Shown here in pieces: positions 37,482 through 60,940 of a DNA stretch of 64,000 nt (position 1 is the stretch's first letter; each line of letters opens with the position of its first letter). The DNA is from Candidatus Omnitrophota bacterium (lineage in GTDB: Bacteria; Omnitrophota; Gorgyraeia; Aquiviventales; Aquiviventaceae). Where the stretch lies: the NCBI GenBank assembly GCA_023247275.1, contig JAHFGT010000005.1, positions 124-64,123 of the forward strand, given 5' to 3'. The notes beneath the pieces were generated by a model. The model did no database searches and had not been told where the DNA came from. It saw only the letters and a list, made by a program, of their open reading frames with translations. A program made the position numbers and the translations under genes.

Positions 37482-37486
37482 GAGGG

Positions 37487-40895: not shown

Positions 40896-40917
40896 CGTTC
40901 CCCCTTGCCGTGCTGCA

Positions 40918-41493: not shown

Positions 41494-41496
41494 GGC

Positions 41497-42006: not shown

Positions 42007-43544
42007 TACAGCACCCCTTTCGAACGATAGTTAACCTCGAAGGTGCGGTAGGAGATGTCCTGCTGTTCGGCTGCCTCTGCCACTTTGCCCAACTCCGCAC
42101 GCGCAAACCCCTGCAACAACGTCTGATCTTGCCGAATGTGCTGGAAGAACCGTTGGATCACATCAATCTCTTGACCGGCCTCTGCGCGAAAACACGCTCC
42201 GCGCAATTCCAAGAGGGGGCGCTGAGGTTTAAACCGGTCCACGATATTGTGGTACCCGATGCTCTGAACCCACACGCCGTCAGGCAACGCCTTGGCTAAG
42301 GTGTCCAGCTTTTCTGTCATCGAAATGCGGCCATCAATCGTCCGCTTCAAAAATGCCAGCCGGCTGTCAACCTGCTGCTGCAGATCCTCCAACTCCTGCT
42401 GACCCTGTTCCTTCAATCCCCATCCCACATCAGGAAACGCTCGCACCGTGTGTTCCATCTGCCGACGGGCGGTTGTGACCTGGTACTCTTCAATCCAGAA
42501 AAAAACCCCCAGAATCACCGCAGCCATCGAGAGCTGCCCTATCAACGGTTTGACCAGCCGGCGACTCTCAATCGACGCGACATTAAGGAGTTCTTGGGAT
42601 GTCTTTTTGACCGTGGTGTCGGTCCGGCCGCTCATCAGTTGGATCGCGCTCCGTGGCTGCAGCTCGCGCAATGCCAACCCGGCGACCGCAGCATCCTCAA
42701 GTGTGAATCCGTCTTGTCGAATCTCTTTGGGGATGGTGCCGATTCCGACCGAGCATTTGAGCTGGCTTTTCAGCCGCTCGACAATCGCGTCCACCGCCGA
42801 CGGCGGGCCATACACCGCCACATGGCGGATCATTGCTTGGGGGTTTTCTCGAGTGAAAAATTCAAACGAAATACCCAGCTCACTGAGTAACGACTCAATT
42901 TCCGGTTGGGGTGCTGGGCCGGTAGGGCCTACGGCGGCTGGTGAGGTCAATGCCACCTCACGGGCAAAATACGGCAACCGGTCTTTGGCGATGACAATAT
43001 GGGCGGATTGCTGGCTGACTTCAACAATTCCGACAAACTGTTTGTCGCTGCCCAGCGGCGCGCCACCGCCGAGCCGAGCCAAGCTCAGTGACCGTGGTTC
43101 GATGAACAACGGCTCAATCCCGGCGGCGCGCAGCGTCCCCTGAATTTTTGCGAACGCTTCTGTGCGCATGCCGATGAACACCACCGACAACATCCGGGTG
43201 CCGCGCTGTTTGACAGCTTGGTAGCCCCAGACCAGCTCTTCAATCTTAAATGGAATGTACTTTCGCGCCTCGAACTGTACCGCACGATCGAGCTCGGCCC
43301 GAGGAAAGATCGGCATGGTAAACGACCGTAGCAGCACATCCCGCATCAGCACCGCCACGCCGACCTGAGCTGTCGTGATCCCTAAATGATCGACGACGCC
43401 GCGAATCGCCTGTGCGATGGAGGCTTCATCATTGGCAGCGACCGGCAACTTCGCAGCCCGTAACTTCAGCGTGGACAAAACCCGCTGAGCGGAAAACGCC
43501 TCAACAACCCCAACCCCTAAGACGATGCCTGCGATTTGTGCCAT
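42006..43544 (-). CDS. PilM-PilN fusion (actin-like cytoplasmic domain + TM + PilN-like periplasmic domain; GspL-like architecture)
   Basis: 512 aa. The N-terminal ~330 aa is PilM-like. A TM helix (SMAAVILGVFFWIEEY) follows. The C-terminal ~150 aa has the PilN-type segment LDTLAKALPDGVWVQSIGY. Confidence 0.7.
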   Translation of the reverse strand: MAQIAGIVLGVGVVEAFSAQRVLSTLKLRAAKLPVAANDEASIAQAIRGVVDHLGITTAQVGVAVLMRDVLLRSFTMPIFPRAELDRAVQFEARKYIPFKIEELVWGYQAVKQRGTRMLSVVFIGMRTEAFAKIQGTLRAAGIEPLFIEPRSLSLARLGGGAPLGSDKQFVGIVEVSQQSAHIVIAKDRLPYFAREVALTSPAAVGPTGPAPQPEIESLLSELGISFEFFTRENPQAMIRHVAVYGPPSAVDAIVERLKSQLKCSVGIGTIPKEIRQDGFTLEDAAVAGLALRELQPRSAIQLMSGRTDTTVKKTSQELLNVASIESRRLVKPLIGQLSMAAVILGVFFWIEEYQVTTARRQMEHTVRAFPDVGWGLKEQGQQELEDLQQQVDSRLAFLKRTIDGRISMTEKLDTLAKALPDGVWVQSIGYHNIVDRFKPQRPLLELRGACFRAEAGQEIDVIQRFFQHIRQDQTLLQGFARAELGKVAEAAEQQDISYRTFEVNYRSKGVL

Positions 43545-43652
43545 GATCTTACCCTCTTAGCGAATGCCGAAGCCCTTCTCAAGCCCGACGAGAAGCATCC
43601 ACTAGTATACATGATTAGCAATAAAACGTTATCAAAACATTATTAAGAACTA

Positions 43653-45323
43653 TCAGCGCTGCTGGACAAGCCGATTCACAGTCTCTTCTAACGTTGCAAT
43701 CCGTTGCTGCTGAGACTGTAGCTGTATATTGAGCTGCTCGATATACCGATGCGCATACTCTAGCTCCTGCAACAGACCGGCAAAATCGTCATCAAGACTT
43801 CGTAACCTGGGTTCGGTACCCTTCTCTTGGCTCGGAGCGATCGCCGGCAAATGCTTGTGCGCCCACATTTCGGCAGCATGCTGTTCGATGCTTGGCAACT
43901 TGTAGTCTGGTTGAAAAACAAAATCTGGCAGGACGGTTCCGTTCCGCAAAATCTGACCCCACACCGACAAGTTGACCGGCACCGCAGGAGGCGGTGCGCC
44001 GATCGTCGTGTTTCCGATGATTTGTACCTTTTCTCCGAGCGCTGGATTCGCTGTCCCGATTCCGACATTGCCATTCGCATCAATGACAAATGGGGTGTCA
44101 TCGCCAGGAAGAGGCAGCAATGGGTTGAACTGATCATCGATCCGTAGCACAGGCGCAACCGCAGCAGGATCCGCTTGCATAATGTGCAATTGGGCCCAAG
44201 CCCCAACGTTATTCGGAACCCCAATCGCGACAAACCCTGTATCGCCGGTGATCTTCATGCGCAGGGGAATGGGACTAGAGCCAGTGTCTGTCGTACCAAA
44301 CAGCATATCCCCTGGATTGCCGCTCATGCCAACGATCGGCACTTGTCCAATGTACCCGCGATGATTCCAGTTGGAACGGAACATGATCCAACTTTTCCCG
44401 CCGGAATCGTTGAGATCAATGGAGGCATTACGATTGGCCCCGGTCGCGGCGCGCAGCCGCAGGCTGGCATCATAGGTGGGGCGCGCCTGGATCACCATAG
44501 TGGGGATGTCTGGCTTGGTGGGATCAAAATCATCGACGTTTAACAGCCCGATTCCGACCTGTCCGTTCTGTTCCCACACCATCCGCGGGGGCACCGCGGT
44601 GAAATCCTGGACAAGATTATCCGTGATGGCGACATCGCGACCGCCAAAGAAGGTCGTGCTGATAGTCGGGCGACCGAAGAAGGCTTGCGGTGAAGTATCG
44701 CCGAAACTGAGCTGCATCCCACTGGCCAACCAGGAGGGCGCACCCCAGGACCGGATTCGCAAAATCATCGGCTGCTGAACCCCAGAGGCCAGGTCTAAAA
44801 ACGTATTGGGATCAGGAAGTCCGGATGCCACACCAGATCCGAGCAGGAAGCCTCTAACCTTGCGAGGACTTCCTGCTGTTTCATCCATGGTCATGCCATA
44901 GTTCCCGTCAGAGGTATGCAGTTCAAAGCTCGGAAATGCTCCTGACGAGCCGCCACCCCCATACATCTGGACTGACGTACCCCACATGCCGAGGACCCGG
45001 GCATTTTCGCTGCGGCCACCGAGGTCCCGCGGCCAGACTAACCAGCCGGTACTATGGAGCGGTTGGCTGTATCGAGTGTTCCAATTGACGTTGTCCATAT
45101 AGAGGTTACCGCCGGTGATTGACATTCTCATCTCGGCACCGATATTTGGCGTGAGGGGGTCTGGGGTAGTCGGTGGAGTCCCGACCCCGACCCGTATCTG
45201 GTTATAGACGCCGCGGGGCGACGGGTAGTAGGTACTTAACGTCAGGTCTTCAGCAGCCACATAGCTGATCAGACCGATCGACACGATCATCCCGACCCCA
45301 AATGTCCATCCATGCGTCCGCAT
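43653..45323 (-). CDS. Secreted fibre-like protein of unknown family (556 aa) in the PilY1 position
   Basis: Sec-type signal (…ISYVAA|EDL), not a prepilin leader. It contains the LSTYYPSPRGVY motif, a Gly-rich beta-type body with NGNVGIGTANPALGEKVQIIG, and a C-terminal module DFVFQPDYKLPSIEQHAAEMWAHKHLPAI followed by a coiled-coil. Confidence 0.6.
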   Translation of the reverse strand: MRTHGWTFGVGMIVSIGLISYVAAEDLTLSTYYPSPRGVYNQIRVGVGTPPTTPDPLTPNIGAEMRMSITGGNLYMDNVNWNTRYSQPLHSTGWLVWPRDLGGRSENARVLGMWGTSVQMYGGGGSSGAFPSFELHTSDGNYGMTMDETAGSPRKVRGFLLGSGVASGLPDPNTFLDLASGVQQPMILRIRSWGAPSWLASGMQLSFGDTSPQAFFGRPTISTTFFGGRDVAITDNLVQDFTAVPPRMVWEQNGQVGIGLLNVDDFDPTKPDIPTMVIQARPTYDASLRLRAATGANRNASIDLNDSGGKSWIMFRSNWNHRGYIGQVPIVGMSGNPGDMLFGTTDTGSSPIPLRMKITGDTGFVAIGVPNNVGAWAQLHIMQADPAAVAPVLRIDDQFNPLLPLPGDDTPFVIDANGNVGIGTANPALGEKVQIIGNTTIGAPPPAVPVNLSVWGQILRNGTVLPDFVFQPDYKLPSIEQHAAEMWAHKHLPAIAPSQEKGTEPRLRSLDDDFAGLLQELEYAHRYIEQLNIQLQSQQQRIATLEETVNRLVQQR

Positions 45324-45336
45324 CTACCTCCCCCTT

Positions 45337-46014
45337 TCAGCACGGGTTAGGAGCACTACTTATCGACCCTGTAGGTTCCATGCCTGAACTTGAATTTTGT
45401 GCAGTCGCATTCAAATTGGTGTACGCACCAGCTCGCAGGACCACCTGACTTTGATACGGACGGTTCGTGCTGGGTGTTACTCCTTCTGAAATAACCTTGA
45501 TCTGCAGCAGGTTGTTGTCCGGGCTTGGCGGATCACTTCCAAGTGCCTGCTGGGTTGAGTCGGCATCGTTGTAGGTCACCGTCAGCCCGGCCAGTGAACT
45601 GTCTGGGGCTTGACCGTAGGTGATTGGCGTGGGACAACTGCTGGTCACCGGATAATAGAATAAAATCTGTTTCAGACCTGAATCATACCGGTACTGGCCC
45701 CAGGTGTAATTGGCGGCTCGATCGAAACAGTCTGGAGTGGGGATCGGCTGGCACGCCGCCTCGGTTGGCACTGGCACCCGAAATTGCACATTGTTAGCCG
45801 ATACGACCACAACACGGTCCGCCATCTGCAACCATTTCCCCATATGCGTTAAGGCCAATTCAGCCTCACCGTTGCGGTTCAGGTTGCGTCGAATGTCTTC
45901 AGAGATATAGACACGGGTCATGTCAACCTGCGTAATGGCCAGGATCAGGATCATCGCCAGTGTTGTCGCAATGAGGATTTCGAATAACGTCACCCCGCGC
46001 TCGCGGTGGGTCAT
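45337..46014 (-). CDS. Minor pilin, PilW-like (225 aa)
   Basis: MTHRERG|VTLFEILIATTLAMILILA is a prepilin leader with Glu+5. The ATG 46014 forms an ATGA overlap with the upstream gene. Confidence 0.6.
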   Translation of the reverse strand: MTHRERGVTLFEILIATTLAMILILAITQVDMTRVYISEDIRRNLNRNGEAELALTHMGKWLQMADRVVVVSANNVQFRVPVPTEAACQPIPTPDCFDRAANYTWGQYRYDSGLKQILFYYPVTSSCPTPITYGQAPDSSLAGLTVTYNDADSTQQALGSDPPSPDNNLLQIKVISEGVTPSTNRPYQSQVVLRAGAYTNLNATAQNSSSGMEPTGSISSAPNPC

Positions 46015-46400
46015 TGTTGAACCCAGCTCACTTTGGCCGTCACCTGGATGCAATCTGGCAACCCAGCGGTCCCGCCGCACTGGGGCATCGCTATGACGGT
46101 GTACGTACGGGTGAATTTAGCATTTGGCGGCTGGACAGGATCTGGCACTGGCGTTGGCGTGCCGATGTTCACCACCGCCGCGCAGGTCGTCGGATTAAAC
46201 CAACCATTATCGCAGGCGACTTGATTGCGCATCCGCTCAATGGTTTCCTGTGTGTATTGGATCGCTTCCACCTTGTTGGGAGAGCGCTGCGAAAACTGGG
46301 CGGCCATGATAAAGGCCAGCATCGCGCCACCGGCGACGAACGCGATCAGGATCGCGGCGACGACTAATTCCAACAACGTTGTCCCTCGTTCAGACATCAC
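46011..46400 (-). CDS. Minor pilin, PilV-like (129 aa)
   Basis: MMSERG|TTLLELVVAAILIAFVAGG is a prepilin leader with Glu+5. Confidence 0.6.
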   Translation of the reverse strand: MMSERGTTLLELVVAAILIAFVAGGAMLAFIMAAQFSQRSPNKVEAIQYTQETIERMRNQVACDNGWFNPTTCAAVVNIGTPTPVPDPVQPPNAKFTRTYTVIAMPQCGGTAGLPDCIQVTAKVSWVQQ

Positions 46401-46406
46401 CGACTC

Positions 46407-46808
46407 CTAGGGACAGCTGGTCCAGGTTCCTGATGGGGTGCGGTTGCCATCGGTTACCTTCAGCCAACTGTTATTGCACTGCCCGCCTTGCCGGGTCGCT
46501 TTGGCGGTGAACTTGGCGCACCCGGCAGTGCAGTTGACGGCAAATTGAATCGACCCGTCCGGCGGGTTTGGATCTTCCATGCTGATGTCTTTCCATGCTC
46601 CGGGCGGCACGTCCAGATACTTGCTGTTGGCAAAGAAATAGACCCGTTCCCCGGCATAGGTGGCCATCAACAGATCCTCTGCCTCGCGTCGACGGCCCAA
46701 CTCGATCGTCTTCGTGAAGTTTGGATAGGCGATCGCGGCCAGGACAGCAAGGATGACGATGGTCATCAGCACTTCGCTGAGCGTAAATCCATCCCGGGCG
46801 CGCTTCAT
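46407..46808 (-). CDS. Pilin-like protein (FimU/PilE-like, 133 aa)
   Basis: MKRARDG|FTLSEVLMTIVILAVLAAIAYPNF. The ATG 46808 overlaps the upstream stop by 1 nt (TGATG). It has four Cys in the C-terminal half. Confidence 0.65.
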   Translation of the reverse strand: MKRARDGFTLSEVLMTIVILAVLAAIAYPNFTKTIELGRRREAEDLLMATYAGERVYFFANSKYLDVPPGAWKDISMEDPNPPDGSIQFAVNCTAGCAKFTAKATRQGGQCNNSWLKVTDGNRTPSGTWTSCP

Positions 46809-47173
46809 CAGTTCAGCGTGTAGGTGACATGTACCTGAAGCTTGCGACCTTGGCATGGCGTTGCGGTGCACGGGGGGATTTCGACATCGACAAAATCGTT
46901 CGGGTCGGTGGTCGTTCCATTCCCGTTGACATCGAACACCACATCAGCGTCTCCTGCTGGATCACTCCACGTCGGGTTTTGCCAGAGCTGCTGCATGGCC
47001 CAAACCAGACCGGCCTCTGCCGCGTACCGGGCTTGGAGTCGGCGCACGTGATAGGCTGACTGGTTGATCCGGGCCATCGACATGGTGAGCGCTGCGAACG
47101 CCGCGATCGAGAACACCATCGCGGTGATAATTACCAATCCCAGCGCAATACCGCGTTCGTTGCTTGGCCGCAT
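46808..47173 (-). CDS. PilX-like minor pilin (121 aa)
   Basis: MRPSNERGIALGLVIITAMVFSIAAFAAL matches the PilX_N pattern (ERG.AL......, no Glu+5). GAGGAG SD lies 7 nt upstream. Confidence 0.6.
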   Translation of the reverse strand: MRPSNERGIALGLVIITAMVFSIAAFAALTMSMARINQSAYHVRRLQARYAAEAGLVWAMQQLWQNPTWSDPAGDADVVFDVNGNGTTTDPNDFVDVEIPPCTATPCQGRKLQVHVTYTLN

Positions 47174-49213: not shown

Positions 49214-51304
49214 TTACGGCAACTGTCGCAACTCGCTCAATCGTTCCTTGGCCATCGCGGCTTCAGGGATTGGCTGTCCGGCAAGCGACTGATAGATCGC
49301 CTCGGCTTCTACCATTCGGTCTTCATGCTCGAGCAGTTTTGCGGCAGCGAGCTGTCCGCGGACCTGCCATGGTGACGCTTCCACATGCTGGTACCATGGA
49401 ATGGCGACTCGCACATCCCCGCCCTCTTCGTAACACGAGGCCGTCAGATAGGTCGCTTCAGCGGTGAGGGCTGGTGACAACTGCGAGGCCACATCATACC
49501 ATCGGATTGCCTTAACGTACATCCGCTCTGCGCGGGCCAAATCACCCAACCGCTTTGCCACTTTGGCGCGATGGCTGCCGGTAAGCCGGTCATGCTCATA
49601 GATGTCCGCTAACCAGCCGATCACCTCGGCTGTGGATTGATGGCGCAATCGCAAATCGGCCAGCAAGAGCCGGGCATCCAAAGCCTCTTCTGTTGCTGGG
49701 GCACGGGCGATCGTCTCCTCGCACAACCGTTGGGCAGCCTGTTCATCTCCATGCTCCATCGCCAGCATCGCCTCATAGTAGCTGACCCGAGCCCCTAATG
49801 ACCCTCCGGCATATTGCTGCTTCAGCGACATCAATTGCACTTGCGCTTGCTCATCCTGTCCGTTCGCCAACGCAGCGATCAGCAGTCCAAGCCGCGCTTC
49901 ACCGGCAATGGCCGGATCCGGATGCGCCGATAACATCTCAAACCGCTTCACCGCCTCGGCTGGCTGTCCGGCCTGGAGCTCCATGCGTCCGAGTTGGTAC
50001 GTCGCGTACGCGGCGGTGATCGTGGTCGGTGCTGCCGCGATCGCTTGTTCATACAGTTGCCGAGCTCCCTCGATGTCGGCTTGATACAACTTCACGTCGG
50101 CTAACCCACTCATCGCCACTTGCTGGGTCGCCGGATCGCCCTGTTCGCGCGCCAATTGGAGCACGGTCTGGGCCTGAGCCGGGTTCCCGTCTTCAAGCGC
50201 CACCAGGCCCAATTTGAGTTGGACTTTGGCGCGTGAACCGGTATCAAGCGGCCGCTTCAGCAGTGTCTGGAGCAATTCGCGGGCGAGTTGAAACTCTCCT
50301 TGTCGTCGGTAGCCATCGACAATCAATAGGCCGCTCTCAAACGCCAACGGATGTTTGGGATCCTCGGCAATAATCCGCTTAAACCGGGACAAGGCCTCTA
50401 CTTCACGACCGGCTTGTAACAAGCAACTGCCCTGCGCAAACAGCGCTTCGCTCTGATGTTCGACCGGCGGCTGCTGCAGATACCGCTGGAACAGTTCAAT
50501 GCTTTCAGCACAATGGCCGTCTTGGAAATAGGCCCATCCTAATCCGAATTGAGACAGGTGAGCCCAGGATGACGTTGGCCCGGCACTCAGCGCCCGTTGA
50601 TAGGCTTGAATGGCCTCGCCGTACCGCTGCGCGCCGGTGTAGCTTTCCGCAAGATAGAAGTTGGCCTGAGCCCCAGTGTCCGAGGTTTGCACGTGGGGGA
50701 CAATGGACTCGAGTGTGGCGATCGCTTCAGTGAATCGGTTGAGTCGCAGCTCGCACAAACCTTCGAACAGACGCGCATCCACAGCCAAGGTGGTTCCTGC
50801 CCGTTGAGCAGCCACCTGCTGAAAATAGGTGCTGGCCACCTCATAGGACTGCTGATGGAGATAGACCAATCCGACGCCGAGCTGTGCTTGCGCACCCCAG
50901 GTGGTGTCCGGGTATTGCGTCAACAATTGCTGATAGGCTGTTTTCGCCCGCGCCATGTGCAACGCGCGGCGGCTGATGTCTCCCTCCCAAAACAACACCT
51001 CTGGCCAGAGCCGGTCATTGGCAGTTAAACGTGTCTTGAGCCGATCCAGTTCGCGCAAGGCATCGTTCGCCTGCTGCAGTCGGTCCAGACTGAGCGCGAG
51101 CCACAGCCAAACGCGCGGCACTTCTGGAACCTGCGGGTTTTGCAGAATGAAGGTTTGCGCCAGGGAAGCCACGCGGTCAAATTGTTCCTGAAGGAACGCG
51201 GTTTGGATCGCCGTGTAGCCTGGGGTGGGATCAGCCTGGGCCAGCGCAGCGCGCAGGAGCCACGCGACTATCATAAAACTGATTGTTCGTTGATGACGCC
51301 ACAT
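49214..51304 (-). CDS. Secreted tetratricopeptide-repeat protein (YbgF-like repeats)
   Basis: Signal peptide MWRHQRTISFMIVAWLLRAALAQA when started at ATG 51304, which overlaps the uvrA stop by 1 nt (TAATG). TPR-like units run throughout. Confidence 0.7.
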   Translation of the reverse strand: MWRHQRTISFMIVAWLLRAALAQADPTPGYTAIQTAFLQEQFDRVASLAQTFILQNPQVPEVPRVWLWLALSLDRLQQANDALRELDRLKTRLTANDRLWPEVLFWEGDISRRALHMARAKTAYQQLLTQYPDTTWGAQAQLGVGLVYLHQQSYEVASTYFQQVAAQRAGTTLAVDARLFEGLCELRLNRFTEAIATLESIVPHVQTSDTGAQANFYLAESYTGAQRYGEAIQAYQRALSAGPTSSWAHLSQFGLGWAYFQDGHCAESIELFQRYLQQPPVEHQSEALFAQGSCLLQAGREVEALSRFKRIIAEDPKHPLAFESGLLIVDGYRRQGEFQLARELLQTLLKRPLDTGSRAKVQLKLGLVALEDGNPAQAQTVLQLAREQGDPATQQVAMSGLADVKLYQADIEGARQLYEQAIAAAPTTITAAYATYQLGRMELQAGQPAEAVKRFEMLSAHPDPAIAGEARLGLLIAALANGQDEQAQVQLMSLKQQYAGGSLGARVSYYEAMLAMEHGDEQAAQRLCEETIARAPATEEALDARLLLADLRLRHQSTAEVIGWLADIYEHDRLTGSHRAKVAKRLGDLARAERMYVKAIRWYDVASQLSPALTAEATYLTASCYEEGGDVRVAIPWYQHVEASPWQVRGQLAAAKLLEHEDRMVEAEAIYQSLAGQPIPEAAMAKERLSELRQLP

Positions 51305-54138
51305 TACCGCACCACGTGACCCGTGAGGGGTCGGCGGACACCCTGCAGGAGCGGCTGGAGAAACCGCCCGGTCCACGATTCAGCCACGGCCGCCACCACC
51401 TCAGGGGTTCCGGCAGCCACCAATCGGCCGCCGGCGGCGCCACCTTCCGGACCCAGATCAATCAGATAGTCCGCTGTCTTGACTACATCAAGGTTGTGCT
51501 CAATGACGACCACCGTATTCCCGTGCTCCACCAACCGGTGGAGCACGCCCAGCAGCTGCTCAATATCGGCAACATGCAGCCCGGTCGTCGGCTCATCCAG
51601 GAGATACAGCGTGCGTCCGGTCGCTCGACGCGACAGCTCGCGCGATAATTTGATGCGTTGCGCTTCTCCTCCTGACAGCGTGGTCGCCGATTGTCCCAGC
51701 TCGAGGTAGTCTAAACCCACCGCCCGGATCGTCCGCAGCTTCTCGCCAATCGCCGGCACATCGGCAAAAACCTGGAGCGCCTCCTCGACTGTCATCGCTA
51801 ACACATCTGCGATCGACCGATCTTTGTAGGTGATGTGTAGCGTGTGCTCGTTGAACCGTTTGCCTTTGCAGACCTCGCAGCGTACGTACACATCTGGCAG
51901 GAAATGCATTTCGATCCGCTTGATCCCGTCCCCTTCGCACGCCTCGCACCGACCACCTTTGACATTGAAACTAAATCGTCCAGGCCCGAACCCGCGTAGC
52001 TTCGCCGCCGGGGTGTGACTGAACAGCTCCCGAATCGGACCAAACGCACCGGTATACGTGGCTGGGTTTGACCGGGGCGTGCGACCGATCGGTGATTGAT
52101 CAATCACGATGACCTTATCGATCTGCTCCAGGCCGGTGATTCGCTCGTGTCGACCAGGAGGCTCTCGACTGCCGTAGAACCGACGGGCCAACGCCCGGTA
52201 GAGGATATCATCGACCAGCGTCGACTTGCCAGACCCAGACACCCCAGTCACGCAGACAAAACAGCCCAGCGGGATCTTCACGTCAATGTGTTGCAGATTA
52301 TGCTCAGCGGCGCCATGGATCACCAGGGCCTCGCGATCCGATGGCCGGCGCTGCGACGGCACAGGGATTCGCCGTGCTCCGGTGAGGAACTGGGCGGTGA
52401 CGCTGCGAGGCGCCGTGAGAATCTCATGGAGCGTCCCGCTGGCGACGACTTCTCCGCCATGTTTGCCGGCTCCTGGCCCCAAGTCGACGATATGATCAGC
52501 GCGGCGAATGGTCGCCTCGTCATGCTCGACCACCACCAGCGTGTTGCCAACATCCCGTAAGCGTTCCAGGGTCGTGAGCAGTTTTTCGTTGTCTCGTTGG
52601 TGCAGGCCAATGGACGGTTCATCCAAGATATAGAGGACGCCGACCAACCCTGATCCGACCTGGGTCGCGAGTCGAATGCGCTGCGCTTCACCCCCTGACA
52701 AGCTGGCTGATGCGCGATCCAAGGTGAGATAGCCCAGTCCGACATCCAGCAGAAATTGCAGCCGGCGGCCGATCTCTTTCAAGATCGGTTCGGCCACCGC
52801 GTGTTGCTGCGTGGTCCATCGCAGCGTCACCAGCCATTGCTGGGCCGCGGCGATCGACTCGGTCGTCACCTCGGCAATCGATCGGCCAGCGATCCGCACC
52901 GCCAGACTGGCTGGTTTCAACCGAGCGCCGTGGCACTCCGGGCATGGCAGCACACTCATGAACCGAGCGATGTCTTCCTTCACATAGTCTGAATCGGTCT
53001 GCCGGAACCGACGCTCAAGATTTGGGATGATTCCTTCGAACAGACCTCCCCACGTCGGCTGGTCTGATCCATAAAGCAGGATCTTCTGCAGTCGCCGGTC
53101 GACCGAACGAAATGGCACATCCAAGCTGATCTGGTACTGCTGCGCCACCTCGCGAATCAACCGGTTATAGTACATCATCATATGCATCCCGCCCCGCTTC
53201 CACGGCTCAATCGCTCCGTCGCGCAGCGACTTCTCCGGGTGTGGCACCACCAGCTCTGGATCGATCTCTAATCGCGTGCCGAGCCCATCACATGTTGGGC
53301 AAGCGCCATACGGGGAGTTAAAGGAGAGGCTTCGCGGCGACAGCTCTTCCACGCTAAATCCGCATTGCGGGCAGGCGTAGAGCTCGCTAAAAGCCAGCTC
53401 TCGCGAGCCGGCGATCACCCGCAGAATTCCTTTGCCGGCCTTCAACGCCGTCTCGACAGACTCGGTCAGGCGTGCCGTGGTCTCGGCGTCGCGTGGCGGC
53501 GGCTCAAGGGTCAGTCGGTCAACGACCACCTCAATGGTATGCGCACGCCGTTTATCCAGCCGAATCGGATCATCCAGATCCTGAAGCCGTCCATCGATTC
53601 TGGCTCGCACAAACCCTTGCCGTTTGATATCCCGCAACAGCTCGACATATTCGCCTTTTCGCCCACGAATCACCGGAGCTAACAAGCTCAATGACCCGGC
53701 TGGCAACGCCAAGAGCTGGCCAACGATTTCCTGTGCGGATTGTTGCGTAATCGGGATCTGACACTGGGGACAATGTGGCGTGCCGACCCGAGCAAACAAC
53801 ACGCGGTAGTAATCATAAATCTCGGTCTGCGTGGCGACGGTTGAGCGGGGATTGCTCCCCGCGGTGCGCTGCTCAATGGCAATGGTGGGCGACAGCCCGT
53901 CGATGGATTCCACATCAGGTTTTTCGAGCCGCTCGAGAAACTGTCGCGCATAGGCGGACAGACTTTCCACATAGCGGCGCTGCCCCTCGGCATACAGCGT
54001 GTCGAAGGCCAAGGAGGATTTCCCTGAGCCGGACAGGCCGGTAATGACGATGAGGCGATTGCGTGGCAGGACCAGATCGACGTGCTTGAGGTTATGCTCG
54101 CTGGCCCCTCGGATACGAATTGCGTCGTTGGTTGACAT
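51304..54138 (-). CDS. uvrA: Excinuclease ABC subunit A
   Basis: IRIRGASEHNLKHVDLVLPRNRLIVITGLSGSGKSSLAFDT, two ABC modules (second Walker A GVSGSGKSTL), and zinc-finger Cys clusters. The start is set at ATG 54138. Confidence 0.92.
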   Translation of the reverse strand: MSTNDAIRIRGASEHNLKHVDLVLPRNRLIVITGLSGSGKSSLAFDTLYAEGQRRYVESLSAYARQFLERLEKPDVESIDGLSPTIAIEQRTAGSNPRSTVATQTEIYDYYRVLFARVGTPHCPQCQIPITQQSAQEIVGQLLALPAGSLSLLAPVIRGRKGEYVELLRDIKRQGFVRARIDGRLQDLDDPIRLDKRRAHTIEVVVDRLTLEPPPRDAETTARLTESVETALKAGKGILRVIAGSRELAFSELYACPQCGFSVEELSPRSLSFNSPYGACPTCDGLGTRLEIDPELVVPHPEKSLRDGAIEPWKRGGMHMMMYYNRLIREVAQQYQISLDVPFRSVDRRLQKILLYGSDQPTWGGLFEGIIPNLERRFRQTDSDYVKEDIARFMSVLPCPECHGARLKPASLAVRIAGRSIAEVTTESIAAAQQWLVTLRWTTQQHAVAEPILKEIGRRLQFLLDVGLGYLTLDRASASLSGGEAQRIRLATQVGSGLVGVLYILDEPSIGLHQRDNEKLLTTLERLRDVGNTLVVVEHDEATIRRADHIVDLGPGAGKHGGEVVASGTLHEILTAPRSVTAQFLTGARRIPVPSQRRPSDREALVIHGAAEHNLQHIDVKIPLGCFVCVTGVSGSGKSTLVDDILYRALARRFYGSREPPGRHERITGLEQIDKVIVIDQSPIGRTPRSNPATYTGAFGPIRELFSHTPAAKLRGFGPGRFSFNVKGGRCEACEGDGIKRIEMHFLPDVYVRCEVCKGKRFNEHTLHITYKDRSIADVLAMTVEEALQVFADVPAIGEKLRTIRAVGLDYLELGQSATTLSGGEAQRIKLSRELSRRATGRTLYLLDEPTTGLHVADIEQLLGVLHRLVEHGNTVVVIEHNLDVVKTADYLIDLGPEGGAAGGRLVAAGTPEVVAAVAESWTGRFLQPLLQGVRRPLTGHVVR

Positions 54139-54187
54139 GTTGATGCGTTTGGGACGCCCGTGTGCGGTGGAGAAATGGATGGGACGC

Positions 54188-54218
54188 AGAGGCCAGACCC
54201 GGGAAGGGCCTGGCCTCT
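54188..54218 (-). terminator. Strong hairpin (terminator-like) between the small basic ORF and uvrA
   Basis: Minus-strand RNA: AGAGGCCAGGCCC-UUCCC-GGGUCUGGCCUCU (13-bp stem). The downstream sequence GCGUCCCAUCCAUUUCUCC is only moderately U-rich. Confidence 0.4.
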
Positions 54219-54236
54219 TCAACGTCTGTGAACGAC

Positions 54237-54448: not shown

Positions 54449-55255
54449 TCATGTGCCGATTTGGATGGGGCTGAACAGCCGCTCCAGCGTCGCGATGGCC
54501 GAGCGAACCGCCAATTCACTCGTCTTGGGATTGGCGCTGGGCCGACTCTCAATCACGCAGCGGATTCGCCCACAATCGCCTTCGATGTCCAGCTCATGGC
54601 GGTTCATGCGCAGTTGCGGATCGGCGATCACGCGAATCCGAGGTTGGCGACTCGAGCCTTGGCTGGCCAAGGCGAGCGCGGCGGCGATATTGGTATTCTG
54701 TGGGAACGCGGCCACCGCCGCTGCTGGGGATCCGGTGAAGATGAGCTTGGCGCGGCGGAGACGGTCCAGTCGCAGGCCGCGTCGTCGTACGTATGGAGCG
54801 TCGGCCAATGCGCGAGCCGGCTTACGGGTCGTGAGGGAGAGTCGACGAATGCGGCCAGTGGCTAAGGCCTTGACGCCGTCGAGTCCGGCCAGCGCCCCGC
54901 TCGGCACATACATCCGGCGACCGGCCTGCTGCGCGAGCCGTTGCCATTCTGGAACTCGTAGCAGGCCACCGACACTCATGACGAACACATCACACCCGGC
55001 GCGCAGCGCTGCACGAACCACCTGGGGCACGATCTCGATCGATGCCGCCTCAAGGATAAGCTGACTGCGCTGAACCAAGGCAGGTAACTCGAGTACTGGC
55101 GGCTGGTGGCGGAGCTGCTGGCGGAGCGCGATGGCTCGCACGGCATCCCTGTCGTGCAGACCGACCAACCGAGCCGCATGCCCATACGACTGTTCAATGG
55201 CGTGTGCAAGCCTGGACCCAATGGTCCCACAACCAACCAGACCTACCCGAAGCAT
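54449..55255 (-). CDS. nadX: L-aspartate dehydrogenase
   Basis: [17 protein letters not shown] Rossmann N-terminus and overall NadX-like length (268 aa). The start at ATG 55255 overlaps the panD stop by 1 nt. Confidence 0.7.
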   Translation of the reverse strand: MLRVGLVGCGTIGSRLAHAIEQSYGHAARLVGLHDRDAVRAIALRQQLRHQPPVLELPALVQRSQLILEAASIEIVPQVVRAALRAGCDVFVMSVGGLLRVPEWQRLAQQAGRRMYVPSGALAGLDGVKALATGRIRRLSLTTRKPARALADAPYVRRRGLRLDRLRRAKLIFTGSPAAAVAAFPQNTNIAAALALASQGSSRQPRIRVIADPQLRMNRHELDIEGDCGRIRCVIESRPSANPKTSELAVRSAIATLERLFSPIQIGT

Positions 55256-55632
55256 TACTCGTTGGAGCACGCCTCGGTGACAACCTGGCGGATCCGGTTC
55301 TCCTCATCCACTAACACGATTTTCGGCGTCAATTCGCTGAGTTCTTCTCGTGTCACGTGCGCGTAGGCGATAATGATGATCTGATCACCGGCGGATATCA
55401 GTCGGGCTGCGGCGCCGTTGATGCACACAGTGCCTGACCCTGGCGTTCCCTCAATGCAATACGTCACCAGACGAGCTCCATTGGTGACATCCACCACATG
55501 GACTTGCTCGTAGGGTGCCAGATCAGCGGCCTGCATGAGCTCAGCATCCAGCGTCAAACTTCCCGTATACGCCAGATTGGCTTCGGTCACCGTCGCACGA
55601 TGAATTTTTGCTCTGCAGACTGTGCGCAACAT
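55255..55632 (-). CDS. panD: Aspartate 1-decarboxylase
   Basis: [29 protein letters not shown] includes the G-S self-processing site. Also [12 protein letters not shown] and NGAAARL. Confidence 0.9.
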
Positions 55633-55642
55633 CGTCGAGACA

Positions 55643-56491
55643 TTATGGCACGTCGACGAGAATATTGTCAATCAGCCGCGTCCGGCCGATCCAGACGGCG
55701 ACCAGGATCGCCAGCGCCCCGTGCAACCGCCATTGCGGCTCTAGTGTGCGCGCGTGGACGATGGCGACATAATCGATTCGCGCCGACGTCGCTGCGCTGA
55801 TCAGTTGACGCATCTCGTCGATCAACGGGCCAGCATCCCCCGCGCCGGCCTGGATGCGGGTTCGTGCCAACTCCAACGCCTGGACCAGCACGGTCGCCTG
55901 CCGACGCTCAGCCGGACGAAGAGATGCGTTGCGCGAACTCATTGCGAGGCCATCAGCTTCACGGACCGTTGGCAGCACATGGATCCGACATCGGAACCGC
56001 AGATCGGCGGCCATGCGACGAATCACCACGCTTTGCTGATAGTCCTTCTGGCCGACGTAGGCGTTGGTCGGCTGAGTGAGCTGGAACAGGATCGCCACCA
56101 CCGTGGCCACACCACGGAAATGGCCTAATCGTGAAGCGCCTTCCCACCGCGCAACCAGCTCTCCGACATCAATGCCGGTTTGGAACCCTGCTGGGTAGAT
56201 CTCGGTGATGGACGGGGCGAACACCAGATCCGCCCCAGTGGCTGCTGCCAGACGCCTGTCCTTGGTCAACGATCTGGGATACCGCTTGAAATCTTCCTGC
56301 GGGCCGAACTGAAGTGGATTCACAAAAATGGTCACGATGACGATATCATTCTGCTCACGCGCGACTCGAATGAGCGAGAGGTGTCCCTCATGCAGCGCAC
56401 CCATAGTCGGCACCACACCCACGCGACGGCGCTGTTGCTGATACCCAGCCGTCAGCGCGGCCATCTGTTTGACAGACCGGACCAGCTTCAT
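55643..56491 (-). CDS. panC: Pantoate--beta-alanine ligase
   Basis: [28 protein letters not shown] and VGQKDYQQ. Confidence 0.9.
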
Positions 56492-56507
56492 GGACTACAG
56501 CTCATCG

Positions 56508-56574
56508 CGCGAATCGGGGACAGCCACTGATCTCCTATCCGTAAACTGAGAGATCAGTGGCTGTCCCCGATTTT
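56508..56574. mobile_element. 67-bp palindromic MITE-like insertion flanked by a 9-bp direct duplication
   Basis: Perfect 23-bp inverted repeat: 56512..56534 aatcggggacagccactgatctc and 56550..56572 gagatcagtggctgtccccgatt, with a 15-nt loop. The direct repeat agctcatcg is at 56499..56507 and 56575..56583. Deleting the element plus one repeat copy restores a folK ending ...DEL-TAG 3 nt before the panC ATG. Confidence 0.55.
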
Positions 56575-57035
56575 AGCTCATCGAGCAGTTGCTGGATCGT
56601 GCGATTTAGGATGGGATGCGTGACCTCAGGAGCGAGTTGAGCCAACGGCTCAAGGACAAATCGCCGCTGGTGCAGACGCGGATGCGGGATCATCAGTCTT
56701 GGATCGTGGACCACGCGATCGTCATACAGTAGCAGGTCCAGATCAATCGGCCGTGGACCCCAACGCTCGGCTGATCGCGTTCGCCCCAGGCCCTGCTCAA
56801 TGCTGTGAAGGATTCGGAGCAGATCGGCGGGCTCATGTTCGGTGTGAATTTCAATCGCGGTATTGAAATAGTTGTCTTGCGGCGGCCCGCCCTCTGGCTG
56901 GGTCTCGATGATCGATGCCATCTGTACCACCCGGATCTGCGGCGTCTGGCTGAGCCGACGGATGGCTTGGGAGATCTGTTCGAGCCGGTCGCCTTGGTTC
57001 GACCCTATACCGATAAAGGCACGGGTCATCGTCAA
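56535..57035 (-). CDS. folK: 2-amino-4-hydroxy-6-hydroxymethyldihydropteridine diphosphokinase
   Basis: AFIGIGSNQGDR and ERWGPRPIDLDLLLY...PHPR are HPPK motifs. The last 12 codons (KSGTATDLSVYG) are encoded by the palindromic element. Confidence 0.85.
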   Translation of the reverse strand: MTMTRAFIGIGSNQGDRLEQISQAIRRLSQTPQIRVVQMASIIETQPEGGPPQDNYFNTAIEIHTEHEPADLLRILHSIEQGLGRTRSAERWGPRPIDLDLLLYDDRVVHDPRLMIPHPRLHQRRFVLEPLAQLAPEVTHPILNRTIQQLLDELKSGTATDLSVYG

Positions 57036-57043: not shown

Positions 57044-58225
57044 TTAGAGGATCTGTTGGATTCGCCTGACCGCTTCCTGGATCCGCTCAATCGGCATGGT
57101 AAGCGAGAAGCGCACATACCCTTCGCCTGCAGATCCGAATCCAACTCCAGGCGTGATCACCAGATGCGCGCGCTCCAAGACCCGCGTCGCAAATGCCATG
57201 GAGGATGATTCCGTGTTCGGCAGCCGAGCCCACACGTAAAAACTCGCTTTCGGCGCCGGGACGTCCCAGCCACAGCTCTTTAACCCAGCCACCAACGCAT
57301 CTCGCCTCGCTTGGTAGGTGGTCACCGCGTGTCGCATCGGTTCCTGATCGCCTTCAAGCGCCTCGATTCCAGCCCACTGGATCGCCTGAAAAATTCCAGA
57401 GTCAAGGTTCGTCTTCAATTGCGTCAACGCAGCAATGACACCAGCGTTCCCGCACACCCATCCGATTCGCCAGCCGGTCATGTTGTAGGTCTTTGACAAG
57501 CTATGAAACTCGACCCCGACCGTCTTCGCATCCGGGACCTGGAGAAAGCTCATCGGCTGACATCCGTCGAACGCGATCTCTGAGTAGGCCGCGTCATGGG
57601 CGACCAGAATTCCATAGTCAGACGCCAATTGGACGGCCTGGGCGAACTGCTCCTCGGTGGCGACCGCGGCGGTCGGATTGTTCGGATAATTCAGGAACAT
57701 CAGCTTCGCACGCTGGGCGGCCTTCTGGCTGACCCCGCCAAGATCTGGAAAAAACTGCAGGTCCTCTTCAAGCGGCATGGACACCACCTCAGCGCCGGCG
57801 AACCGTGCGCCGCTACGATACGGTGGATAACAGGGATCCGGGACCAGCACGACATCGCCTGGATTGGCCACCGCCAATGGCAAGTGCGCGATCCCTTCCT
57901 TTGATCCTAGCAGCGGCAAGATCTCCATCTCTGGGTCAAGCGCCACATGGAATCGTCGCCCATACCAGCGCGCGATCGCTTCACGTAACGGTTTGATCCC
58001 CTCGCTAAAGCTATACCGATGGTTCGATGGATCATCAACGGCGGTCTTCAACCGTTCTCGAATATGGGATGGGGTCGGCAGATCCGGGTCGCCAACACCG
58101 AGATCAATCACATCCTTGCCCTCGCTGATCAGTCGCCGCTTGGCTCGATCCAACTCAACGAACACATAGGGCGGCAGCTGTTTCAAACGATCCGCTTTGC
58201 ACTCTGTGGCAATCGCAGGGGTCAT
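57044..58225 (-). CDS. dapL: LL-diaminopimelate aminotransferase (class I/II aminotransferase)
   Basis: LKQLPPYVFVELDRAKRRLISEGKDVIDLGVGDPDLPTP and PLP-lysine region SLSKTYNMTGWRIGW. It sits between folK and dapB in a dapA/B/F-lysA cluster. Confidence 0.75.
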   Translation of the reverse strand: MTPAIATECKADRLKQLPPYVFVELDRAKRRLISEGKDVIDLGVGDPDLPTPSHIRERLKTAVDDPSNHRYSFSEGIKPLREAIARWYGRRFHVALDPEMEILPLLGSKEGIAHLPLAVANPGDVVLVPDPCYPPYRSGARFAGAEVVSMPLEEDLQFFPDLGGVSQKAAQRAKLMFLNYPNNPTAAVATEEQFAQAVQLASDYGILVAHDAAYSEIAFDGCQPMSFLQVPDAKTVGVEFHSLSKTYNMTGWRIGWVCGNAGVIAALTQLKTNLDSGIFQAIQWAGIEALEGDQEPMRHAVTTYQARRDALVAGLKSCGWDVPAPKASFYVWARLPNTESSSMAFATRVLERAHLVITPGVGFGSAGEGYVRFSLTMPIERIQEAVRRIQQIL

Positions 58226-58243: not shown

Positions 58244-59014
58244 CTAGCGCCCCGGCTCAGTCGCCCGAAGCACATGGCTCATGTCATACAGCCCTGGGGG
58301 TTGCGTTGCGACAAATTGCGCAGCGCGCACAGCCCCCTGAGCAAAGATCTCACGGCTCTGCGCGCGGTGCGTCAACTCGATCCGCTCTGCACCCGCCGCA
58401 AAGATTACCGTATGATCGCCGATGATCTCTCCGGCCCGGATCGCATGCATCGGGATTGCGCCAGGCGATTGGTGTCGGGCAGACGCCACGACGTCGGCCA
58501 ACCGCTTGGCAGTGCCGCTGGGCGAATCCTTTTTCCCTTTGTGATGACTTTCAACAATGTCAACGTCCACCGATGGACCCAGCCGTCGCGCCGCCAATTC
58601 GACCAGCTCGAACAGGACAGTGACACCGATACTCATGTTCGGGCTGAGCAGAATCGGCACGCGTCGCGCAGCGGCTTGCACCACCGCACGCTGAGCATCG
58701 GTCAACCCGGTAGTGCCAATGACCATCGGTTTGCCCAGTGATTGCGCCAGCTCCACATGCTGCACCGTGGGCTCTGGCAGGGTGAACTCGATCAGGACAT
58801 CTCCACGACTGATCGCCGTCTTGGCATCCTCGCTGACCGGCGGCAGCCCGTTCATTTGCAGACCGAGCACGGTAGCGTACGATTGTCCGATGGCTGGATG
58901 GCCGGGCGCTTCAAACGCCGCGACCACGCTCGCTGCCGACTCGCGTAACGCACATCGGGCAATGGCCTGCCCCATGCGTCCACAACACCCGCTGATCGTC
59001 AGCTTGAGAGCCAT
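58244..59014 (-). CDS. dapB: 4-hydroxy-tetrahydrodipicolinate reductase
   Basis: LKLTISGCCGRMGQAI, IGTTGL and ESHHKGKKDSPSGTA. Confidence 0.9.
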   Translation of the reverse strand: MALKLTISGCCGRMGQAIARCALRESAASVVAAFEAPGHPAIGQSYATVLGLQMNGLPPVSEDAKTAISRGDVLIEFTLPEPTVQHVELAQSLGKPMVIGTTGLTDAQRAVVQAAARRVPILLSPNMSIGVTVLFELVELAARRLGPSVDVDIVESHHKGKKDSPSGTAKRLADVVASARHQSPGAIPMHAIRAGEIIGDHTVIFAAGAERIELTHRAQSREIFAQGAVRAAQFVATQPPGLYDMSHVLRATEPGR

Positions 59015-59020: not shown

Positions 59021-59144
59021 CAGATATCAGAGGCCAGAGGGCAGAGATCAGAAGAAACATGCTGCGTAGCCCTCATGCTCTCCTTCCCCCTTGTCCCTTA
59101 ACATCTCGTTCTCTGACTTCTGACTTCTGACCTCTGACCTCTGG
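59021..59144. repeat. Inverted arrays of a CAGA-type heptamer flanking a 54-bp core, in the dapA-dapB spacer
   Basis: Left arm 59021..59054: CAGATA TCAGAGG CCAGAGG GCAGAGA TCAGAAG. Right arm 59109..59144 is the reverse complement of CCAGAGG TCAGAGG TCAGAAG TCAGAAG TCAGAGAA. The same heptamer type occurs at 5851..5925. Confidence 0.5.
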
Positions 59145-60029
59145 AGTTTTCAGCAGCCCGTGCCGCTCTAGTGCGGACGTCAGGCGAGCGAGGTTCGCTT
59201 CTGACATCGGGCACAACGGCAACCGGAGTCCAGGCTCGATCAGGCCCAGGAGTCCCATCGCGGTCTTGACTGGGATCGGATTGGTCTCAACAAACAGCGC
59301 CTTGGCCAACGGCAATAATTTCCGATGCCATTCCAGCGCCTCAGCCTGTCGGCCGGCCAGCGCGGCACCCACCATCGCCGCGGTGTCGGCTGGAACCAGA
59401 TTCGCCACGACAGAGATGACCCCGGTGCCACCGATCGACATTACCGGTAACGTGAGTCCATCATCGCCTGAGAGCAGCGTCAGCTTGCCGTTGGTCAATT
59501 CCAGGATCCGCGCCATCTGTTCAAGGTTACCGCTCGCTTCTTTCACGCCGATGATGGTCGGGATCTCCGCCAGCCTCGCGAACGTCTCCGGCTCGATATT
59601 CACGGCGGTCCTCGAGGCAATGTTATAGAGCACCAGCGGCAGATCCACCGCCTCAGCAATTGCCTTGAAATGCAGATACAGGCCTTGCTGCGTCGGCCGG
59701 TTGTAGTACGGGGCAATCAACAGCGCCGCATCCGCGCCAGCTTCTTTAGCATGCCGTGTGAGCCGAATGGCTTCTCTGGTGTTGTTGGAACCGGTCCCGG
59801 CAATCACCGGGATCCTCCCCCGGGCCGCCTGGACGGTGACATCGATCACCTGATCGTGCTCATCAAACGACAACGTCGCGGATTCGCCGGTGGTCCCGCA
59901 TGGCACCAGCGCCGTGGTCCCGGACTCGATCTGGTGCTCAATCAGCCGCCGCAACGCTGCTTCATCGACCGCCTCCTGTCGAAACGGCGTCACCATGGCG
60001 ACCATCGATCCGCGCAGGGCGAGTGTCAT
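59073..60029 (-). CDS. dapA: 4-hydroxy-tetrahydrodipicolinate synthase
   Basis: MVAMVTPF, GTTGESATLS and catalytic Lys region IIGVKEASGN. The ATG 60029 forms an ATGA overlap with the dapF stop. The last ~24 codons (TPEVRGQKSEVRERDVKGQGGRRA) are encoded by the heptamer-repeat element. Confidence 0.9.
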   Translation of the reverse strand: MTLALRGSMVAMVTPFRQEAVDEAALRRLIEHQIESGTTALVPCGTTGESATLSFDEHDQVIDVTVQAARGRIPVIAGTGSNNTREAIRLTRHAKEAGADAALLIAPYYNRPTQQGLYLHFKAIAEAVDLPLVLYNIASRTAVNIEPETFARLAEIPTIIGVKEASGNLEQMARILELTNGKLTLLSGDDGLTLPVMSIGGTGVISVVANLVPADTAAMVGAALAGRQAEALEWHRKLLPLAKALFVETNPIPVKTAMGLLGLIEPGLRLPLCPMSEANLARLTSALERHGLLKTPEVRGQKSEVRERDVKGQGGRRA

Positions 60030-60940
60030 CGATGTCGGTGACCGTTCCACGGCACGGTGCCTTGCGTCATTTGCCGGACCTCTCCTTCAAGGAACGCCTG
60101 TCCACAGATCATTTGACGACGCCGCGGATTGTAGCGCGCGCTCAATTCGACTCTGAGCTGGCCACCCGGAACATCAACGTCAATTTCAAACCGCGCAGTC
60201 GACCGCCTCGCGTCCTGGCGGCCAGAGACGATCTTGTACGCAACACTGGCGGCAGCGGCAACAGCGCCGGTGCCGCAGGCATGCGTTTCAGCCTCAACGC
60301 CGCGTTCGTACGTTCGCATCGCCATCTGCACCTTCCATACCCCTCTGGTTTGTGTGATCGCGCCGAGGGATGGGACACGAATGAAATCGACGTTCGTCCC
60401 CGCGGGTTGGAACCGGCGATGGGACCGCAGTGCGTGGCCCAACGATTGCACCGGCACGCGACGAAGGTCGTTCATCCAACACACCAGATGCGGCACGCCA
60501 GAATCGATCACATCGACTCTGGCAAACGCCCGCCCGCCGGCGCGCAATCCTGGCAGATGATCCAGCACTCTTGGAACGCCCATGTCCACCCGCACCCGAT
60601 GACCTGGCAAGATCGTGGCGCGCCGAACCCCGGCGTTCGTTTGAATCGTTAGTCGTGTTCCCAAGCCATGCGCCGCCGCATACGCCGCGACACACCGGAC
60701 CCCATTGCCGCACATCGATGGCTCAGATCCGTCCGGGTTAAAAATCCGCATGCGCACATCAGCCCGGGGAGACCGCCCAAGCACCAAGAGCCCATCCGCT
60801 CCGATGTTGGCGCGCCGGTCACACAATGTTGTCGCAAGCCGTGTCCATCGAGGCTGGCTGGTCGCCTGCTGTTGCCGCGCATCGATCAAAATAAACTCGT
60901 TCCCGGTCCCGGTCAATTTCGTATACCGAATGGTGGTCAT
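60026..60940 (-). CDS. dapF: Diaminopimelate epimerase
   Basis: FTKLTGTGNEFILID, and the two catalytic Cys contexts MCGNGVRC and ACGTGAVAAA. Confidence 0.9.
   Translation of the reverse strand: MTTIRYTKLTGTGNEFILIDARQQQATSQPRWTRLATTLCDRRANIGADGLLVLGRSPRADVRMRIFNPDGSEPSMCGNGVRCVAAYAAAHGLGTRLTIQTNAGVRRATILPGHRVRVDMGVPRVLDHLPGLRAGGRAFARVDVIDSGVPHLVCWMNDLRRVPVQSLGHALRSHRRFQPAGTNVDFIRVPSLGAITQTRGVWKVQMAMRTYERGVEAETHACGTGAVAAAASVAYKIVSGRQDARRSTARFEIDVDVPGGQLRVELSARYNPRRRQMICGQAFLEGEVRQMTQGTVPWNGHRHR

Follow-up and report, generated by a model that had tools for sequence, protein, structure and literature searches.

A short palindromic insertion, probably a MITE-like element, at the 3′ end of folK in a likely Omnitrophota bacterium

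In the stretch of bacterial DNA analysed here (64 kb of contig JAHFGT010000005.1, hereafter the window), the junction between the neighbouring minus-strand genes folK and panC carries a perfect hairpin with an identical 9-mer on either side (positions 56499-56583). This arrangement is probably the footprint of a transposition, by which a short, non-autonomous element resembling a MITE (miniature inverted-repeat transposable element) entered the end of folK. The element would consist of two 23-bp terminal inverted repeats and a 15-nt linker, and would have inserted once, into the last codons of folK, in a recent ancestor of the population. A transposase supplied in trans would have cut the strands with a stagger of 9, or possibly as many as 12, bp, and its repair would have duplicated the target, CGATGAGCT, so that one transposition event accounts for both the inverted repeat and the flanking duplication. 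On this account folK would have come to read through one arm and the loop, gaining the tail KSGTATDLSVYG and stopping at the TAG at the loop end, and the second copy of the repeat would have preserved the old folK stop together with 17 nt upstream of panC. The distance between the genes would have grown from 3 to 43 nt and the polycistronic mRNA would have gained a perfect 23-bp helix between them.

On the plus strand the whole locus reads AGCTCATCG-CGCG-AATCGGGGACAGCCACTGATCTC-CTATCCGTAAACTGA-GAGATCAGTGGCTGTCCCCGATT-TT-AGCTCATCG. A repeat finder places the arms of the inverted repeat at 56512-56534 and 56550-56572, each 23 nt long, 100% complementary and 15 nt apart, and the direct repeat AGCTCATCG at 56499-56507 and 56575-56583, which reproduces the coordinates at which an earlier note on this DNA had described both features. 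The direct repeat extends to 11 of 12 matching positions (AGCTCATCGCGC compared with AGCTCATCGAGC). The element between the 9-mers measures 67 bp and the inverted-repeat block 61 bp, with termini that can be written (CGCG/AA)AATCGGGGACAGCC. The panC-proximal 9-mer (56499-56507; CGATGAGCT on the coding strand) is a remnant of the presumed ancestral folK end, ...GAT GAG CT/G TAG, and is separated from the inverted repeat by the non-palindromic CGCG (56508-56511), which is either the terminus of the element or, should 12 bp have been duplicated and one position changed since, partly target sequence. There follow the arm AATCGGGGACAGCCACTGATCTC (56512-56534), which is the 3′ arm on the mRNA (minus) strand and lies within the new 43-nt spacer between folK and panC, and the 15-nt loop (56535-56549; CTATCCGTAAACTGA on the plus and TCAGTTTACGGATAG on the minus strand), which encodes S-V-Y-G of FolK and the folK stop TAG (56535-56537). 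The arm GAGATCAGTGGCTGTCCCCGATT (56550-56572), 5′ on the mRNA strand, is translated within the FolK tail as (K)SGTATDL, and the non-palindromic TT (56573-56574) separates it from the folK-proximal 9-mer (56575-56583), which encodes D-E-L of the conserved FolK ...LLDEL.

The combination of hairpin and flanking 9-mer is not a chance feature. The hairpin is the only perfect inverted repeat of such size in the 64-kb window, where the arm (AATCGGGGACAGCCACTGATCTC/GAGATCAGTGGCTGTCCCCGATT) finds no further match at three or fewer mismatches; none of 100 shuffles gave any match. For a mock 61-bp block placed along the window, 43 of 63,700 positions (6.8e-4) have a flanking repeat of at least 9 nt within 8 nt of both sides. 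The description of the structure as a very stable 23-bp RNA hairpin also holds, the predicted fold of 121 nt of the coding (minus) strand having an energy of -63.6 kcal/mol (z = -7.9) and the DNA-strand fold one of -28.8 kcal/mol (z = -8.9). The insertion target GCTCGATGAGC (56575-56587) codes for FolK's conserved LLDEL end and forms a small palindrome of its own, GCTC-GAT-GAGC. Since the target 9-mer is partly palindromic, the two repeat copies lengthen the RNA helix past its 23-bp stem, so that it covers the stretch immediately before panC.

The 3′ end of folK reads ...CTC GAT GAG CTA AAA TCG GGG ACA GCC ACT GAT CTC TCA GTT TAC GGA TAG, which translates as ...LDEL-KSGTATDLSVYG-stop. One arm and the loop encode the last 12 residues of FolK, KSGTATDLSVYG, and the last three loop bases form the stop codon (56535-56537), so that the reading frame confirms the earlier proposal that folK runs through the right arm, acquires 12 residues and stops in the loop. 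Deletion of 56508-56583 yields ...CAA CTG CTC GAT GAG CTG TAG TCC ATG AAG..., in which an intact FolK ends in LLDEL* and is followed by TCC and the panC ATG. This reproduces the claimed restoration of an LLDEL-stop end 3 nt before panC, and the reconstructed empty site (CTCGATGAGCTGTAGTCCATG / CAACTGCTCGATGAGCTGTAGTCCATGAAGCTG) shares its layout of stop, 3 nt and ATG with a relative, L034. The distance from the folK stop to the panC ATG is now 43 nt, as against 3 nt in the reconstruction, and duplication of the target would have left the 17 nucleotides upstream of panC as they originally were. The PanC N-terminus, MKLVRS, aligns with MKLIRS and MRVLRS of relatives.

The assertion that the insertion rewrote the FolK C-terminus is correct in that both tail and stop are encoded by the element, and is overstated in that tails of variable length are normal in this clade and lie beyond the catalogued domain. 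The HPPK profiles cease matching at about the LLDEL motif, and NF007595 matches FolK up to residue 154 of the 166-aa open reading frame (ORF); since these matches end near LLDEL, the tail is outside the conserved HPPK domain. Among relatives the tails that follow LLxxL range from 2 to about 17 residues and are not conserved, so that the short end of the reconstruction and the 12-residue tail now present both fall within normal variation of the clade.

Comparison with relatives distinguishes an insertion from an ancestral spacer. The nearest named homologues are proteins of Candidatus Omnitrophota metagenome-assembled genomes, at 58-66% identity, from which the host lineage is probably Omnitrophota. 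Six related lineages keep the operon order dapA-dapB-dapL-folK-panC-panD-aspDH-uvrA, and the next relatives, with the same gene order, have FolK proteins that are 63-71% identical. At the folK-panC junction three of the six lineages have a 4-nt ATGA overlap (P0002, L025; P0004, L027-29; P0008, L030-31), one a 10-nt overlap (P0021, L032), one a 24-nt gap (P0003, L026) and one a 3-nt spacer, TAA CCC ATG (P0006, L034). In L034 (517-560) the gene caller placed the panC start at a downstream ATG; panC probably begins only 3 nt past the folK stop, since TAA CCC ATG AAG GTG ATT AGA specifies the conserved N-terminus MK(V/L)IRS. None of the six lineages with this operon has a hairpin, or similarity to the element, at the folK-panC junction. 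This comparison had been proposed in the earlier note, and the element, far from being conserved at the junction in all relatives, is a lineage-specific insertion and not an ancestral spacer, because the junctions of the six relatives are without the hairpin.

The same comparison bears on the idea that the structure grew in place as a spacer under selection, which we consider distinctly unlikely. According to this scheme the 5′ arm and loop would be an ancestral FolK tail, the 3′ arm would stem from an inverted duplication through template switching and the 9-mer would be coincidental, the RNA helix serving to tune expression of folK and panC, for example as an RNase III site or a coupling device. 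In its favour, FolK tails of 6-12 residues follow LLxxL in relatives, whose copies of the operon also have unrelated hairpins (about 60-70 nt) at junctions other than this one. The stem is perfect and is fixed across the four assemblies, and the 3′ arm contains a Shine-Dalgarno (SD)-like AGGAG and a mini-ORF that ends 3 nt before panC. However, it needs two independent events and a chance flanking repeat (p about 7e-4), no relative has a precursor at the junction, and deletion of the element leaves a complete and sensible gene end, as is expected of an insertion and not of growth in situ. A candidate for an ancestral tail, LPSGSIA of P0006 (L034), faintly resembles LKSGTAT in protein, but the DNA encoding PSGSIA is unlike the arm and the candidate was rejected.

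The hairpins at other junctions lie at L032 325-380 and 2422-2490 and at L026 90-160, and are located at dapA-dapB, at dapL-folK (with the dapL stop within the 5′ arm) and upstream of folK. Short tandem units make up some of them, and all lack a flanking direct repeat. They were considered as copies of the same element and discarded, being unrelated in sequence, imperfect and without flanking repeats. The gain of hairpins at gene 3′ ends may be recurrent in the Omnitrophota-like clade.

Four assemblies agree at every base of the locus, the two 9-mers included: the window's NCBI contig (64,470 nt, nearly all of which the window covers), ENA ERZ27276474 k141_3673780, ENA ERZ27280021 k141_6033477 and Logan SRR14366787. 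The exact FolK protein is likewise recorded in other assemblies, and the locus L001 differs from the window at 3 of 6,849 positions. Being near-identical, the four assemblies sample one population; they exclude an artefact and add no evolutionary depth. Foldback artefacts sometimes create perfect palindromes, and a palindromic chimera of assembly or sequencing could in principle look like this. The identical locus was nevertheless recovered in four assemblies from at least three samples with two assemblers or pipelines, in mid-contig, its structure is far shorter than the k-mer size in the contig labels, and its flanks run on into intact folK and panC. An artefactual origin is thereby effectively refuted, its probability being negligible, and the 9-mer duplication, whose absence from independent assemblies would have told against an insertion, is found in all four.

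Searches for further copies of the element and for a transposase found neither. The copy count for the host covers only the 64-kb window and 1.8 kb beyond it from a sister contig. The scans of GTDB representative genomes and JGI metagenomes used the exact 18-nt core of the arm, and a gapped two-terminus pattern would tolerate more divergence. GTDB representative genomes gave exact 18-mer matches at 7 loci, JGI metagenomes at 14 and IMG/VR at 2; all are single-arm matches in unrelated organisms or coding regions, and their number is close to chance expectation. Those that extend to 20-22 nt (L017, L019/L022, L015 and L013) have an unrelated context and no second arm, L019/L022 lying inside a large coding gene, and were dismissed as chance. 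The gapped two-arm pattern gave zero matches in IMG/VR. Since neither the GTDB nor the JGI scan returned the window's own locus, the source genome lies outside these two collections.

Several results weigh against a transposition. A single copy is known, with no second in the window or the 1.8 kb beyond, and there is no two-arm match in GTDB representative genomes, JGI metagenomes or IMG/VR. A blastn search (word 11) with the 85-nt locus gave one 25-nt match at E = 2 among plasmids and none among phages. Six-frame peptides of the element, compared with 5.8 billion proteins, returned nothing at E <= 10, and so no protein running through another copy, in a search so insensitive that the source FolK itself, with a 12-aa exact match, went unscored. 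Pfam and NCBIfam scans found no transposase, integrase or recombinase among the approximately 59 ORFs of the window, which agrees with the earlier statement that no transposase is present there; they found only housekeeping and type II secretion or pilus genes. Nor did the collections scanned (GTDB representatives, JGI and plasmids) yield an insertion sequence (IS) with matching termini. The closest relatives without the element are only about 63-71% identical in FolK, and a true empty site was not observed. Moreover, the inverted repeat is not flush with the 9-mers, 4 nt (CGCG) and 2 nt (TT) intervening; if the duplication was of 12 bp with one later change, the intervening bases would be 1 and 2. 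Lastly, 67 bp is unusually small, and neither the element nor its target is AT-rich, unlike typical prokaryotic MITEs.

The lack of other copies is the only consideration that favours a one-off capture of snap-back (foldback) or filler DNA during staggered double-strand-break repair at the palindrome GCTCGATGAGC, with overhang fill-in giving the 9-bp duplication; overall we hold this to be unlikely, though worth keeping in view. Points that fit it are the single known copy, the absence of a transposase nearby, the non-palindromic CGCG and TT between inverted repeat and duplication, and the nature of the target, a mini-palindrome (GCUC GAU GAGC, which folds in the empty-site RNA and DNA) and hence a breakage-prone structure. 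Yet no source for the arm sequence was found in the window, GTDB representatives or JGI metagenomes, and the copy-number negative is weak, the host genome extending beyond the DNA searched. DDE-type transposition has as its signature a clean 9-bp duplication on either side of an inverted repeat, which break repair in bacteria seldom produces, and this tells against a capture.

How closely a transposed element of this kind would match known families can be judged from its parts. By the published description, prokaryotic MITEs stay below 500 bp, their inverted repeats measure 4-30 bp, young copies have direct repeats and the transcripts fold into stable hairpins (PMC10969869). The folK element is short and noncoding (67 bp, with stops in all frames but one and an open frame of 22 codons only), has terminal inverted repeats that are perfect over 23 bp, though 4 and 2 nt from the direct repeats, and is flanked on both sides by an exact 9-mer that marks a target-site duplication, six related lineages being without the element. 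The perfection of its arms is a further departure from the typical MITE. The MITE label fits the architecture, and the element may be a mobile member of a repeated family. Bacterial MITEs are known to make 7-9-bp duplications and to supply C-terminal residues and stops at gene 3′ ends (PMC6382973; PMC5896051), and they can number from 1 to 22 copies per genome (PMC6382973).

The closest parallel in effect is QMITE2 of Coxiella burnetii, which is noncoding, forms a hairpin, has terminal inverted repeats and enters functional genes at their 3′ ends (PMC5896051). Its direct repeats are 7-9 bp, compared with 9 bp here, its hairpin is very stable at about -68 kcal/mol, and in enhC it supplies C-terminal residues with a stop codon directly after, as the element does for the FolK tail (PMC5896051). 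QMITE2 is, however, longer and present in 62-78 copies per genome, whereas the folK element is 67 bp long, has one known copy and shares no sequence similarity with it (PMC5896051). MITEAba12 of Acinetobacter is likewise noncoding, with terminal inverted repeats and 9-bp target duplications, can be single-copy in a genome, and in one case is fused to a gene 3′ end where it gives the stop, as in folK (PMC6382973). It differs in being 113 bp long and 78% AT, with 16-bp imperfect inverted repeats around an 81-bp core, and in having a proposed parent IS (ISAba12) and demonstrated transposition (PMC6382973). The Rickettsia palindromic elements (RPE) also join host ORFs and add residues that the protein tolerates, but they are about 150 bp long, multi-copy and placed in-frame within genes, unlike the folK element, which ends the ORF after 12 residues (PMC10969869).

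A parent for the element can be considered among the DDE families. Insertion sequences of the IS1 type and of the IS4/IS903 type make 9-bp target duplications, and the terminal inverted repeats of IS1 are about 23 bp. These IS1 figures are the same as those of the folK element and provide a lead only; there is no significant similarity to any IS in a plasmid collection rich in IS1, IS10 and IS903.

Repetitive extragenic palindromic (REP) sequences make a different comparison. In gamma-proteobacteria REP sequences, bacterial interspersed mosaic elements (BIMEs) and REPINs are palindromes of intercistronic regions; in mRNA they fold into stable hairpins and can lend stability to the segments upstream. 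REP and REPIN palindromes are imperfect, bear a conserved GTAG head, number in the tens to hundreds of copies, are mobilised by REP-associated tyrosine transposases (RAYTs) and make no target duplication. The folK element, unlike these, has a perfect stem, a single copy, arms without a GTAG head and a 9-bp duplication. The earlier note had offered a non-autonomous transposable element or a REP-like insertion: the insertion itself stands, given the six relatives without the hairpin and a 9-mer beyond chance, and the REP/RAYT version of it fits poorly with a 9-bp duplication. That the locus is a REP or REPIN spread by a RAYT (an IS200/IS605-type tyrosine-HUH transposase), or else an intrinsic terminator, is highly improbable. 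A stable, extragenic-style palindrome at a gene end is what such readings would predict, but the stem is perfect, the copy single and the duplication 9 bp, and the window contains no Y1 transposase.

A terminator, which had also been suggested, is contradicted by the sequence that follows the stem. On the coding strand this reads CGCGCGAUGAGCUG, with no U-tract, and a terminator scan reports none here; in addition, the operon goes on downstream with panC, panD and aspDH. Just one further strong hairpin is present in the 64-kb window, at 35675-35732 (minus strand), between a pseudopilin-like ORF (35793-36176) and tRNA-Ala(CGC) (35546-35621); it is a canonical intrinsic terminator, with TTTTTCTTC after an imperfect 25-bp stem. 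Lacking a U-tract, unlike that terminator with its TTTTTCTTC, the folK-panC hairpin is not an intrinsic terminator. Rfam 15 has no family that matches the hairpin at gathering threshold; matches to animal and plant microRNA precursors scored 18-33 bits against thresholds of 58-96 and were set aside as generic-hairpin noise. The sole gathering-level Rfam match in the window is the tRNA-Ala, away from the element.

In the transcript the element would most plausibly act as a processing or stability determinant and make initiation at panC more reliant on ribosomes that unwind the stem while finishing folK. A perfect RNA helix of 23 bp has sufficient length to serve RNase III as a substrate or to block 3′ exonucleases. 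Such a helix could cause the mRNA to be cut in two or give its folK and panC portions different stabilities, and independent initiation at panC may be hindered unless ribosomes finishing folK open the stem. A putative mini-ORF of 10 codons, MAVPDSRDEL, can be read on the minus strand at 56495-56536: an SD-like AGGAG (56536-56532) overlaps the folK stop, a GTG (56527-56525) opens the frame four nucleotides later, and the TAG that closes it (56497-56495), presumably the ancestral stop of folK, comes 3 nt ahead of the panC ATG. With hindsight, this mini-ORF could relay translational coupling across the hairpin. A bolder proposal is that the element, which at 61-67 bp is smaller than the bacterial MITEs compared, is a minimal functional transposon, composed of two 23-bp transposase-binding ends and a 15-nt linker with its own translational relay, and is suited to operon junctions instead of being a neutral scar. 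We regard this as very unlikely; if it were true, the relay would let the element land in a tightly coupled operon, at the end of an essential gene, with coupling unbroken.

The surrounding operon genes all lie on the minus strand. Upstream of folK are dapA (59073-60050; Pfam DHDPS), dapB (58244-59014; Pfam DapB_N and DapB_C) and dapL, encoding LL-diaminopimelate (LL-DAP) aminotransferase (57044-58225; NCBIfam). The folK gene itself (HPPK; 56535-57029) encodes 164 aa from its ATG and matches TIGR01498 at 1.6e-40 over residues 6-136. It is followed by panC, encoding pantoate-beta-alanine ligase (55643-56491; TIGR00018, 1.7e-87), panD (within the ORF 55255-55671; TIGR00223), the aspartate dehydrogenase gene aspDH (54449-55270; NCBIfam) and uvrA (51304-54222; Pfam UvrA domains in the called genes of L001, which covers the same stretch). 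The gaps between called operon genes are 58, 18, 14, 43, 10 and -1 nt, which does not bear out the assertion that spacing is tight everywhere else in the window. On a larger scale, the minus strand carries 57 of the window's 59 likely genes, which makes the strand bias across the 64 kb extreme, and two separate gene clusters resemble those of type II secretion systems or type IV pili (about 1-4600 and about 35793-46871). Three minus-strand ORFs, at 29481-31673 (730 aa), 33218-34780 (520 aa) and 43653-45323 (556 aa), have no Pfam match at E <= 0.01, and the last of them sits inside a type II secretion or type IV pilus-like cluster.

The element is thus probably a real but ordinary MITE-like footprint. 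The kind of event, in which a palindromic mobile element at a gene 3′ end donates a tail, a stop and an mRNA hairpin, is already well documented in other bacteria, and the practical value of the present case is modest. It offers a clean and datable instance of a tiny palindromic insertion tolerated at the stop of an essential folate-pathway gene in a packed operon, the outcome being that FolK would have received a new tail, panC would have kept its upstream sequence through the duplicated target, and the mRNA would carry a 23-bp helix. For annotation it is a warning that the last 12 residues of the present FolK are not FolK sequence. A literature search found no paper describing such elements in the phylum concerned, probably Omnitrophota. 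If further copies exist, the element would represent a very small MITE family in an uncultivated phylum and could serve as a handy strain-level marker.

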